DNA of 64,000 nucleotides, taken from contig NC_086380.1 of assembly GCF_036588685.1 (NCBI RefSeq), positions 10,405,347 through 10,469,346 on the forward strand. The letters are read 5' to 3'. Made by a program: the position numbers and the translations under genes. Below, in pieces: positions 21,501 through 23,483 of this stretch (its first letter is position 1; each line of letters begins with the position of its first letter). Below the pieces are notes generated by a model. That model was not told the DNA's origin and ran no database searches. It saw only the letters and a list, made by a program, of their open reading frames with translations. This DNA is from Mytilus trossulus (Eukaryota).

Positions 21501-23483
21501 TTATTTAGCAGTGATTTACCTCCCTTGCCACCAGATGACAGTGATTTAGACAGCAACCTCTCTGTCAAAGATACTGATGGTAAATATTACACTGCAGTCG
21601 CTATAGACAGTAATGTTAATACAATAAACAAGTATTATGCTCCAGATTTTGACCCTTCATTTAAACCAAATGAGATGTCTAAAACAGTACCATCTCAGGT
21701 GGTGGATATTCAATTTGATCTCATTAATGCATCTACATCCATGATGTATGAAGCAGAAAAGATACCAAGTACTGAACCTACACTTCTGGACTACAATTCA
21801 TCTTCGCCAGGTAGCCTAACTGAACCAAATTACTTACCAAAACCTCTAAGCTATAGCCATGCTTTCTCTGGGTATCAACCAACATGGCCACATTATAGGC
21901 CAACTTCACCATTAATGGAGCCTACAAGTCTTGCTGTCCCAGATTTTCAACCAACATGGCGAAGTTATAATCCAAATAACTTACCACAATCTTTAAGCTC
22001 TACCCATGCTATCCCAGAGTATCAACAGACATTTCCAAGTTACAGTCCAACATTGCCAACTTACCAGCCAACAAGTCCCGCCTATTTTATCTCTCAAAAC
22101 TACAAAACAGTCAACAGATCTACTGAAAAATCATCTCATTTTCTTAAGAATCTGGATGGGAGTATGTCTCACTATGATCCTAAAACTATAGATATGAAAG
22201 AAACAGAGGTAAAATGTAGTATTAGAGGAAGGGGAGGAGGAAGTAGTGTTAGAGGAAGAGGCAAAGGAAGGGAAGGATGGAGAAGTGTGAGAGGAAGGAC
22301 AGAAGAAGGTAGAGATGGAAGAGGAGTAGAAAGCTGGAGAGGCCAGGAATACACTGGTCAAGGGCCAATAGGTCGTAGTGAGATTGGCTGGAATCAGAAA
22401 GATGATATAAGAGAAATAGAAAGAAAAGAAGAGCAAAGAAGTCATAGAGGATTTGATGAACATTTAGATAAGAGAGAGTCTGATAAATCTAAATCTAGGA
22501 GTATATCACCTACAAATAGAAGGCGTAAAGGATCAGGAAAACGATCGTCTCCTGACAGAAGACAAAGTAGATCTAGAAGAAAATCACCTTCCTTCAGAAG
22601 GGCTAGCAGGTCTAGTAGTAGATCAAGCTCTTGCAGGAGACAAAGTAGATCTAGAAGTAGATCTTACAGAAGACCCAGTAGATCTAGAAGTAGATCTTAC
22701 AGAAGACCAAGTAGATCTAGAAGTAGATCATCTCTCTTTAAAAGACATAGGAGATCTACAAGTAGATCGCCACCTTACAAAAGAAATAGTAGATCTAGGA
22801 GTAGATCAAGAAGTAACAGAAGAAATAACAGATCAAGAAGTAGATCACATCCCAACAGAAGAAGAAGCAGATCTAGAAAATCTTTGAGTTCAAGGAGAAG
22901 TTCTTCTAGATCAATATGTAGGGATAGGGATAGAGATAAAGGAGAGGGTGGCAACATCAGTACCAGTAGCCATGATAGGAAGCTTGCTAGATCTAGAAGT
23001 AGACAATCAAGTCATGTGATGTCCAGAAGGAGAAGATTTTCAGGGTCAAAAAGTAGGAGAAGGTCATCAAGCACAACCTCTTCAAGGTCAAGAAGGAGAA
23101 GTCCAAGATTAATTAGCAGAAGTTTATCAAGGTCAGGTCAAAGGTCACCAAAAAAGAAGTCTAGAAGGTCAGGAAACTTTAGTAAAGTGAAACAAGTGAC
23201 TAACAGAAGTATCTCAAGGTCAATATCCAGAACAAGACGATCCAGACAATCAAGATGGTCCAAACTTTCACCTTCAAGATCCAATGAAATATCGAGTTCA
23301 AGATTGGAGATGTTGGCAAAATCTGATTATGATGGCTTTATGAAAGCAAAGAGAGATTTTATTTTTTATGAAAATGCAAGTCCATCACCTTGTAGAGACA
23401 ACATATCAAAAAGTAGAACAGATGATGAGAGAAAACAGCAGGGATATGTATCTTCTGATCAAGACATAGCTGAAGGTAACTAA
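21501..23483 (+). CDS. Terminal exon F, 660 aa. It has an N-terminal P/Y-rich region with CTD-like heptads (YQPTWPH, YRPTSPL, YSPTLPT, YQPTSPA), then a roughly 350-aa RS/SR-rich domain (SRSRSRSYRRPSRSRSRS...). The stop TAA is at 23481-23483.
   Basis: The acceptor cttttttcag is at 21491-21500. The supplied ORF 21525..23483 extends in frame back to 21501. The compositional RS domain is obvious. AATAAA is at about 24119. Confidence 0.65.
   Translation, partial: LFSSDLPPLPPDDSDLDSNLSVKDTDGKYYTAVAIDSNVNTINKYYAPDFDPSFKPNEMSKTVPSQVVDIQFDLINASTSMMYEAEKIPSTEPTLLDYNSSSPGSLTEPNYLPKPLSYSHAFSGYQPTWPHYRPTSPLMEPTSLAVPDFQPTWRSYNPNNLPQSLSSTHAIPEYQQTFPSYSPTLPTYQPTSPAYFISQNYKTVNRSTEKSSHFLKNLDGSMSHYDPKTIDMKETEVKCSIRGRGGGSSVRGRGKGREGWRSVRGRTEEGRDGRGVESWRGQEYTGQGPIGRSEIGWNQKDDIREIERKEEQRSHRGFDEHLDKRESDKSKSRSISPTNRRRKGSGKRSSPDRRQSRSRRKSPSFRRASRSSSRSSSCRRQSRSRSRSYRRPSRSRSRSYRRPSRSRSRSSLFKRHRRSTSRSPPYKRNSRSRSRSRSNRRNNRSRSRSHPNRRRSRSRKSLSSRRSSSRSICRDRDRDKGEGGNISTSSHDRKLARSRSRQSSHVMSRRRRFSGSKSRRRSSSTTSSRSRRRSPRLISRSLSRSGQRSPKKKSRRSGNFSKVKQVTNRSISRSISRTRRSRQSRWSKLSPSRSNEISSSRLEMLAKSDYDGFMKAKRDFIFYENASPSPCRDNISKSRTDDERKQQGYVSSDQDIAEGN

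Follow-up and report, generated by a model that had tools for sequence, protein, structure and literature searches.

The window analysed here is a 64-kb stretch of the Mytilus trossulus genome (contig NC_086380.1, positions 10,405,347–10,469,346 of the forward strand) that is AT-rich (∼32% GC) and contains spliced genes and retroelements. Our subject is a large open reading frame (ORF) at 21501–23483, which encodes heptads resembling those that RNA polymerase II (Pol II) carries in its C-terminal domain (CTD), followed by a long arginine/serine (RS) domain. Coordinates are positions in the window and 'aa' numbers are residues of the exon translation; L001 and L003 denote the M. galloprovincialis locus and the M. 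coruscus locus, respectively.

The ORF lies on the plus strand, opens at 21501 immediately after a canonical splice acceptor (ttttttcag/TTA, 21500/21501, where the stroke marks the junction) and closes with a TAA at 23481–83. There are no stops over its 660 codons in frame 1, compared with 24 and 99 in the other two plus-strand frames, and the chance of such a stop-free run given the exon's own base composition is ∼6e-22. An earlier sequence-only reading of this stretch had proposed an open coding exon at 21501–23483, and the acceptor and the stop-free run bear this out. That reading had also considered a 660-codon exon of this composition to be unusual in itself. This does not hold, since RS-rich or disordered exons of several kilobases are known generally; SRRM2 and SON both have multi-kb RS exons. 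On the sequence evidence, 21501–23475 is a genuine coding exon that evolves fast, and the mosaic gene to which it belongs is known only from Mytilus. Pfam gave nothing significant on the exon translation. The layout of the exon is as follows.

21501–23475, plus strand: large coding exon of 658 codons + 1 nt, phase 0 to 1; where the donor is unused, the ORF continues to the stop at 23481–83.
21501–21872, plus strand: N-terminal non-repetitive part (aa 1–124), containing LPPLPP, DFDPSF and LLDYN, with no Pfam match.
21873–21914, plus strand: heptad block 1, YQPTWPH YRPTSPL (aa 125–138), from sequence and alignment.
21945–21986, plus strand: heptad block 2, degenerate, FQPTWRS YNPNNLP (aa 149–162), from sequence and alignment.
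22020–22085, plus strand: heptad block 3, YQQTFPS YSPTLPT YQPTSPA Y (aa 174–195), the nearest to YSPTSPS.
22215–22340, plus strand: arginine/glycine (RG)-rich, RGG-like box CSIRGRGGGSSVRGRGKGREGWRSVRGRTEEGRDGRGVESWR (aa 239–280), with 27/38-nt repeats found by Tandem Repeats Finder (TRF) at 22216–22319.
22386–22487, plus strand: mixed-charge (E/R/K/D) stretch (aa 296–329), the most conserved segment (91% aa identity).
22488–23282, plus strand: RS domain (aa 330–594) of 265 aa, 64% R+S, with 40 RS and 39 SR dipeptides.
23283–23475, plus strand: tail beyond the RS domain, holding the one predicted helix of notable length (aa 601–618, SRLEMLAKSDYDGFMKAKRD), from alignment and AlphaFold2 (AF2).
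23476–23483, plus strand: donor GT (23476–77), then in-frame TAA (23481–83); GAAG/GTAACTAAATG is identical in M. galloprovincialis.

A HMMER scan of 1.84 billion representative proteins with the spliced locus model found one homologous cluster (E = 0, 79% identity), whose members are XP_076109027.1 (LOC143077023, 'uncharacterized protein', M. galloprovincialis, 1391 aa) and CAG2240014.1 ('CLTC', M. edulis, 2016 aa). The remaining matches listed fell mainly on a 25-residue H3-like stretch, and the six that were retrieved are histone H3 or H3 concatenates. Because the full scan yielded a single cluster with both members from Mytilus, the gene appears to be restricted to this genus; as far as the searched protein library shows, the exon is confined to it. 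Exact database look-ups of the window ORF, taken either from a TTG start or from the first ATG, returned no record. The exon is thus already in public annotation through its relatives, where it is uncharacterised, and literature searches on an H3 mimic with an RS domain, on CTD-like heptads outside RPB1, on PF05001, and on Mytilus with H3, PARP4 or clathrin returned nothing on this protein. A Logan contig (L002) was considered as a spliced transcript and rejected, being collinear with genomic DNA with the intron included.

The orthologous exon used for comparison is:

L001:15530–17602: M. galloprovincialis, 691 codons, 80% aa identity.

The M. coruscus locus ends ∼3.3 kb past the second acidic exon, short of the large exon, so that the heptad comparison is between two species. 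The two exons differ by a dS of 0.147 (Nei–Gojobori), and the ratio of non-synonymous to synonymous rates (dN/dS) for the whole exon is 0.71 (p = 0.027, marginal). For aa 1–124 the ratio is 0.75, with the N-terminal ∼60 aa being the best-conserved part of the region ahead of the RS domain. Across the heptads, linker and RG box it is ∼0.9 or above (0.94–1.19), and for the RS domain it is 0.46 (p = 0.003). Only the RS domain and, marginally, the whole exon therefore depart from neutrality. The reading frame itself is under selection, since ∼205 substitutions have produced no stops where 10.7 were expected (P = 5e-5, simulation) and each of the 10 indels preserves the frame (P ∼2e-5). The alignment thus shows a clearly protected reading frame with moderate purifying selection on the RS domain and no detectable constraint on the heptads.

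These data bear on the possibility that the ORF is a young product of repeat expansion, a low-complexity sequence with little or no independent role. It occurs only in Mytilus and carries no domains, its nucleotide mismatch (∼11%) is about equal to the rate in the introns nearby, where the chief difference is a larger number of gaps, and its dN/dS is near 1 from the heptads to the RG box. However, a functionless sequence would not be expected to keep its frame so non-randomly, or to show significant purifying selection on its RS domain, and we regard this explanation as improbable.

The pattern [YF]x[PQ][TN]x[PRL]x is matched by seven heptads, grouped in three blocks at aa 125–138, 149–162 and 174–194. 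Blocks 1 and 3 share a heptad register, 49 residues apart, and block 2 is offset by 3. The peptides quoted in the sequence-only reading all occur in the translation, at 21873–21914, 21945–21986 and 22020–22085. The further claim that the heptads echo the CTD consensus was supported by the comparisons with shuffled and PDB sequences. Four heptads fit a strict Y.PT.P pattern. In 200,000 shuffles that kept composition this number was never reached, and restricting the shuffling to the local P/S/T/Y-rich 100 aa made no difference. The Smith–Waterman score against (YSPTSPS)x26 was 185, compared with 59 ± 12 for shuffles (z = 10.4), and the M. galloprovincialis region gave z = 9.9. The strongest self-match period in the window region is at lag 7 (in the orthologue lag 25 is equally strong), and TRF reports a 21-nt period at 22029–22073. 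When the 90-aa heptad region was searched with phmmer against 177,635 PDB sequences, all but one of the 22 matches were RPB1/CTD chains, the other being deposited as CDK7. The best whole-sequence E value of 1e-12 is inflated because repeat scores are summed, and the best single stretch had an i-E of only 0.07. Since the shuffles, the CTD alignment, the period of 7 and the PDB matches agree, the exon's likeness to the Pol II CTD is, at the level of sequence, objective and goes beyond composition.

Against the Pfam family for CTD repeats (PF05001, RNA_pol_Rpb1_R; gathering cut-off 20.3 bits), the threshold was reached narrowly, and in the orthologue alone. The window region was unmatched even at E ≤ 10, and the scores were 20.8 bits for the isolated M. 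galloprovincialis region, 18.6 for the whole of XP_076109027.1 and 13.9 for the M. edulis model. A long uninterrupted C-terminal array as in RPB1 is absent from the exon: the blocks contain two, two and three heptads, are separated by spacers of 10–11 residues and lie in the middle of a non-polymerase protein. As read from the sequence, each heptad pair ends a unit of ∼25 residues made up of an 11-residue linker and two heptads (KPLSYSHAFSG-YQPTWPH-YRPTSPL; MEPTSLAVPD-FQPTWRS-YNPNNLP; QSLSSTHAIPE-YQQTFPS-YSPTLPT, then an extra YQPTSPA-Y). A mussel-foot-protein-like Y/P/T repeat was considered as an alternative identity and rejected, given the RS/RG context and the lack of a signal peptide in any retrieved gene model.

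The sequence-only reading had made its case depend on orthologues keeping the heptads, and M. galloprovincialis does so. It has CQPIWPH-YRPTSPF-YEPTSPA, FQPTWQS-YSPISLP, an extra 25-residue unit ending YSPINLP, and YQPTSPS-YSPTSPS-FEPTSFA, which are locally nearer the consensus than those of the window and include one perfect YSPTSPS. The number of ∼25-residue units differs (three in the window, four in M. galloprovincialis), as does the heptad register. The CTD-defining positions Y1, P3, T4 and P6 were not conserved between the two species: 9 of 32 differ when counted by eye, compared with 7 of 24 free positions, and the segment has a dN/dS of 1.15 (p = 0.68), with no purifying selection detected. 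On these comparisons, the best account of the CTD likeness is that repeats expanded in a disordered region rich in P/S/T/Y or that the heptads descend from old CTD-coding sequence, and the heptads do not appear to be a mimic that selection currently maintains.

The RS domain that follows has a core of ∼9 tandem units of 33–39 nt encoding x-RR-x-S-RSRSRS-xx. An RS/SR domain of roughly 350 residues had been described from the sequence alone; the domain is present, but is strictly 265 aa long, and reaches ∼350 only if the RG box and the mixed-charge stretch are counted. By the definition of Manley and Krainer, quoted in PMC9479744, proteins of the serine/arginine-rich (SR) class have at least one N-terminal RNA recognition motif (RRM) and an RS domain, 50 aa or more in length, with >40% R+S and RS/SR repeats. 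The RS domain here, with 265 aa, 64% R+S and 40 RS and 39 SR dipeptides, is of this kind, whereas the protein falls outside the canonical definition because Pfam found no RRM in the exon, the spliced model, XP_076109027.1 or CAG2240014.1. SR-related proteins can also be recognized by composition, as having a low-complexity stretch with ∼70% or more S+R combined (PMC9479744), and 30-aa blocks at aa 361–450 and 511–540 lie at 0.70–0.77 R+S. The earlier description of the domain as typical of splicing-factor-like proteins is thus right as to SR-related composition; no RRM or other RNA-binding fold was found by Pfam. Our verdict from sequence is that the exon product is probably a lineage-specific, SR-related disordered segment. 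Two other identities were rejected: a protamine-like sperm basic protein (cephalopod protamines are R/S/Y-rich), in view of the lack of homology, the 265-aa length and the flanking modules; and a transposon-derived ORF, the sequence being single copy in the window and in L001.

Upstream of the large exon there are exons related to histone H3, which the sequence-only reading had placed in the same polypeptide:

5311–5442, plus strand: H3-tail-like exon VKRKKQSARKSTGGKCPRIQ... (H3 2–19, K9-like), membership of the same transcript uncertain.
6821–6967, plus strand: exon with GPRKSAPIVED (H3K27-like motif), membership of the same transcript uncertain.
18248–18475, plus strand: acidic (D/E-rich) exon of the same gene model, phase-compatible.
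18616–18725, plus strand: exon matching histone H3 residues 35–57 (tblastn E = 6.6e-10, 87.5% identity, 21/24 residues).
20670–20760, plus strand: exon SKLDDFAGEFPSLMPPYVTIDEEKLKQYEAM (SKLDDFAGEF...), which joins 21501 in phase.

The last three exons are all found in XP_076109027.1 alongside the heptad/RS exon, so that an H3-αN-like segment and CTD-like heptads occur on one annotated protein, and it is only for the H3 αN segment that the link to the heptad/RS exon is certain. For the two H3-tail exons the proposal of a shared polypeptide fails in RefSeq, which puts them in an upstream PARP4-like gene, and holds only in the M. edulis model, which joins them downstream. The M. galloprovincialis calls end the upstream PARP/VIT/VWA/ubiquitin-like gene at L001:8379, beyond the H3-tail exons; in M. 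coruscus, the models for the ubiquitin-like gene upstream include these exons outright. The start of XP_076109027.1 bears on the same question. Its 30-nt first coding exon (MTGDTHQTGC; L001 10001–10030) is present at window 11110–11140 with the in-phase donor mutated (GGATGT/GTAAAT to GGAGGTTTAAAT). The lost donor makes the annotated start doubtful and favours, but does not prove, the long M. edulis-type model.

The H3-like exons are retained in three Mytilus species, and they look from their sequence like descendants of an H3 gene rather than convergent motifs. A histone fold (α1–α3) is absent, as only H3 ∼2–19, 26–30 and 35–57 were matched and the spliced model has no Pfam Histone match. The H3 N-terminus is nearly covered (∼2–19, the K27 motif RKSAP, and 35–57) by separate exons, with the acidic exon intervening. 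M. coruscus (L003 45191–45348 and 50916–51077) and M. edulis also carry 'LATKAARKSAPATGGV' (H3 20–35) exons, which were not found in the window or in M. galloprovincialis.

These exons, together with the heptads, raise the possibility of a functional double or triple tail mimic, in which H3-tail/αN-like, CTD-like and RS pseudo-substrates act as a hub, sponge or decoy for writers, readers and kinases. The H3-like exons are very near H3 (21/24 for residues 35–57; KQSARKSTGGKCPR for the tail) and have been kept in three species; the orthologue has a perfect YSPTSPS, and its isolated region exceeds the Pfam cut-off; the PDB search matched essentially RPB1/CTD only; and the H3-αN exon and the heptads share a single RefSeq protein. 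Against this, the heptad region evolves neutrally and its key positions are kept no better than the others, there are just two to three consecutive heptads per block, with neither register nor copy number conserved, and the H3-tail exons may sit in a different, PARP4-like gene. We think it unlikely that the protein works in this manner, and 'mimicry' of the H3 or CTD tail is put forward here as a hypothesis.

Downstream of the large exon lie exons related to the clathrin heavy chain:

24949–24980, plus strand: putative bridging mini-exon (DIPRHPLERNK) of 32 nt, phase-compatible, with conservation not above intron level.
26888–26959, plus strand: exon MWKHDKGGEMHSGPSPIEKHIIIK, similar to the extreme N-terminus of the clathrin heavy chain, from alignment.
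27256–38639, plus strand: exons of a paralogue of the clathrin-heavy-chain terminal domain (β-propeller) and a ∼200-aa C-terminus, joined to the large exon in both Mytilus models.

A donor consensus (GAAG/GTAACT at 23475/23476) lies 6 nt ahead of the stop; the string GAAG/GTAACTAA is conserved, and GAAGGTAACTAAATG is the same in M. galloprovincialis. We estimate roughly, from base frequencies, that the chance of an AAG/GTAA donor within ∼10 nt of a true stop is ∼2e-3. Both Mytilus models (XP_076109027.1 and CAG2240014.1) splice from this donor through a mini-exon and a 72-nt exon into the clathrin-like region, and the equivalent path in the window (23475 to 24949–24980 to 26888–26959 to 27256) shows canonical sites and compatible phases, and its frame is open throughout. 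The mini-exon is 6 nt shorter in the window than in M. galloprovincialis (32 and 38 nt), and its phase is still compatible. The region reached by this path encodes a complete seven-blade terminal domain (CLTC residues 11–334, E = 1e-85; Pfam Clathrin_propel). CHCR leg repeats and a trimerization domain were not found, Clathrin_propel being the sole clathrin Pfam family in the 1391-aa and 2016-aa models, and the protein ends ∼200 aa past the propeller, the C-terminal ∼200 aa being unrelated to clathrin and without a Pfam match. Given the conserved donor at the end of the ORF, two agreeing annotations and a continuous ORF downstream, the exon is probably internal rather than terminal, and its description as a terminal exon in the sequence-only reading is doubtful.

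LLDYN (21786–21800) resembles a clathrin box and DFDPSF (21645–21662) resembles an endocytic appendage-binding motif. Both are conserved in M. galloprovincialis and both may be chance; they occur in a protein that possibly carries its own clathrin terminal domain.

The interpretation we prefer, with moderate confidence, is that the ORF represents a single large coding exon, probably an internal one, within a Mytilus-only mosaic gene, and that this exon would serve as a phospho-regulated targeting or scaffolding linker. Several points weigh against it. The TAA at 23481–83 is also conserved in M. galloprovincialis, the exon at 26888 has an in-frame Met in both species (at different positions), and the mini-exon has 6 substitutions in 32 nt relative to M. 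galloprovincialis, as counted from the alignment. The overall dN/dS of 0.71 is high. Disorder is suggested by a single-sequence AF2 model with a mean predicted local distance difference test (pLDDT) score of 37.9 and 626 of 660 residues below 50, which fits disorder and is in itself weak evidence for it. Nuclear import, speckle targeting and phosphorylation are suggested by composition only, and expression and the splice junctions are likewise predicted, from genomic sequence and annotated models.

The first three of these points allow a two-gene arrangement, in which the exon would be truly 3′-terminal (TAA 23481–83) in an acidic/H3-like gene and the clathrin terminal-domain paralogue would be a separate gene, fused to it by automatic annotation. 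This is a structural alternative that is compatible with the same biochemistry. Beyond the conserved stop, the Mets and the unconstrained mini-exon of unequal length, it would explain the AATAAA signals 0.6–0.9 kb downstream of the stop, and XP_076109027.1 is partly ad hoc, its dubious 30-nt first coding exon having a donor that is not conserved in the window. However, a conserved donor consensus lies exactly at the end of the ORF, phase compatibility has been kept in the window despite indels, and two annotations share the junctions. In addition, the exon at 26888 is preceded by a conserved AG acceptor and has no Met at a common position, and the sequence right after the stop is 68% conserved, compared with ∼80% in other introns, which is unlike a 3′ untranslated region. 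A terminal exon is therefore a serious but doubtful alternative to the internal exon.

The exon product is a chain of ∼660 predicted-disordered residues comprising a short conserved N-terminal stretch, three CTD-heptad units (four in the orthologue), an RG box, a mixed-charge stretch, an RS domain that arose through tandem duplication of 33–39-nt units, and a short helical tail. If the exon is an internal linker, this chain would connect an acidic/H3-αN-like N-terminal part to the clathrin terminal-domain propeller. Judging by the composition of the RS domain and by RS domains elsewhere, it may be subject to SRPK/CLK-type phosphorylation, nuclear import and partitioning into speckles or splicing condensates, while the RG box, judged in the same manner from RG domains elsewhere, may confer RNA binding and arginine methylation (RS and RG domain functions are reviewed in PMC9479744). 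The Tyr/Pro/Ser/Thr heptads would provide proline-directed phosphosites and aromatic 'stickers', and could permit co-partitioning with condensates of the Pol II CTD type.

A more elaborate version of the tail-mimic proposal is that of an 'integrated decoy' or sponge, a single polypeptide in which descendants or look-alikes of the H3 tail/αN, the CTD heptads and an RS domain are strung together with a clathrin propeller that binds peptides. Should the M. edulis model be right, such a protein would also have the PARP4-like catalytic, VIT, VWA and ubiquitin-like N-terminal part; it could sense or titrate kinases, methyltransferases or pathogen effectors aimed at nuclear tails. To our knowledge, the integrated-decoy principle is established for plant NLR immune receptors and not for animal nuclear proteins, and we consider its operation here very improbable.

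Returning to the scaffolding-linker interpretation, the closest likeness of the exon is to SR-related proteins without an RRM, such as SRRM2, SON, RSRC1/2 and PNISR, in which a long, disordered RS domain lies in one large exon and the flanking short repeats are tandem-duplicated. By likeness to proteins of the SRRM2/SON type, nuclear-speckle targeting and SRPK/CLK phosphorylation would be expected for the mussel exon. Unlike these proteins, with which it shares no sequence homology, the mussel protein has no PWI, RRM or other RNA-processing domain, and its RS domain is joined with H3-like, CTD-like and clathrin terminal-domain modules in one mussel genus. With the Pol II CTD (PF05001) it shares the heptad period and the Y1-P3-T4-P6 pattern, reaching a perfect YSPTSPS in the orthologue. 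In contrast to the CTD, however, the protein is not RPB1, its 7–9 degenerate heptads lie in blocks of two to three with 10–11-residue linkers, and the motif is without selective constraint. S2 and S5 are mostly replaced in the mussel heptads, by Q, R or N at position 2 and by W, F or L at position 5.

The FET family (EWS/FUS/TAF15) offers a third comparison. Its N-terminal SYGQ repeats, historically likened to the CTD, precede RGG boxes, and the mussel exon similarly has Tyr-rich degenerate short repeats followed by an RG box in a disordered, condensate-prone sequence. The repeats differ (YxPTxPx in the mussel, SYGQQS in FET), a long RS domain is lacking from FET proteins, which do carry an RRM and a zinc finger, and there is no homology. 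Histone-tail mimics are known in several non-histone proteins (G9a ARKT, influenza NS1 ARSK, EZHIP K27M-like, JARID2 K116), and the mussel locus likewise has short H3-like motifs (ARKS, RKSAP) in a non-histone polypeptide. Unlike such convergent mimics of 4–5 residues, the mussel H3-like segments are long (19 and 23 residues, with an H3 12–36-like exon in other Mytilus). Compared with the clathrin heavy chain, the mussel product has the terminal domain without the legs.

Other elements occur in the window. The upstream gene (window 461–640 and 2274–4181; L001 1–8379; L003 1–8941) is PARP4-like, with BRCT, PARP, VIT, VWA and ubiquitin-like domains and a Q-rich region; the window also has an array of 27-nt repeats and, at 3559–4042, seven copies of a 69-nt repeat (97% identical). 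Annotations disagree on the 3′ end of the PARP4-like gene and on whether the H3-like exons are part of it. The intron that separates the upstream exons from the acidic exon harbours, at 12329–17317, a DIRS-like retroelement that appears intact. Its ORFs, of 650, 794/742 and 207 aa, give Pfam matches to reverse transcriptase (RT)/RNase H, and the C-terminal ORF appears tyrosine-recombinase-like by eye; the element is not found at the corresponding position in the M. galloprovincialis locus. A 161-nt tandem repeat (3.8 copies, 26099–26706) lies in the intron ahead of the clathrin-like exons and also, at 80–90% identity, in a different M. galloprovincialis intron (L001 6425–7182). Its presence in different introns of the two species suggests a mobile satellite or an element resembling a miniature inverted-repeat transposable element (MITE). 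Further retroelement fragments at 7957–8946, 55247–58103 and 59708–61110 include an RT-associated zinc-binding region, gag-like and RVT_1 ORFs, and other minus-strand ORFs.

The individual modules of the exon and its neighbours are thus of known kinds. What is unusual is their combination, in one genus, of near-consensus CTD heptads outside RPB1 with an RS domain and H3-derived exons, at a locus that also reveals inconsistent gene boundaries in current Mytilus annotations. If, as the pattern of substitutions indicates, the heptads are merely what repeat expansion left behind, the locus would be an evolutionary curiosity and a caution against reading function from low-complexity likeness. If the gene model is right, a Mytilus protein joins H3-, CTD-, SR-RS- and clathrin terminal-domain-like pieces. 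It would then be a natural example of gene birth by the shuffling of housekeeping-gene fragments together with short-repeat expansion, and a test case for whether CTD-like and RS-like disordered segments of the same chain decide how it distributes between transcription and splicing condensates.

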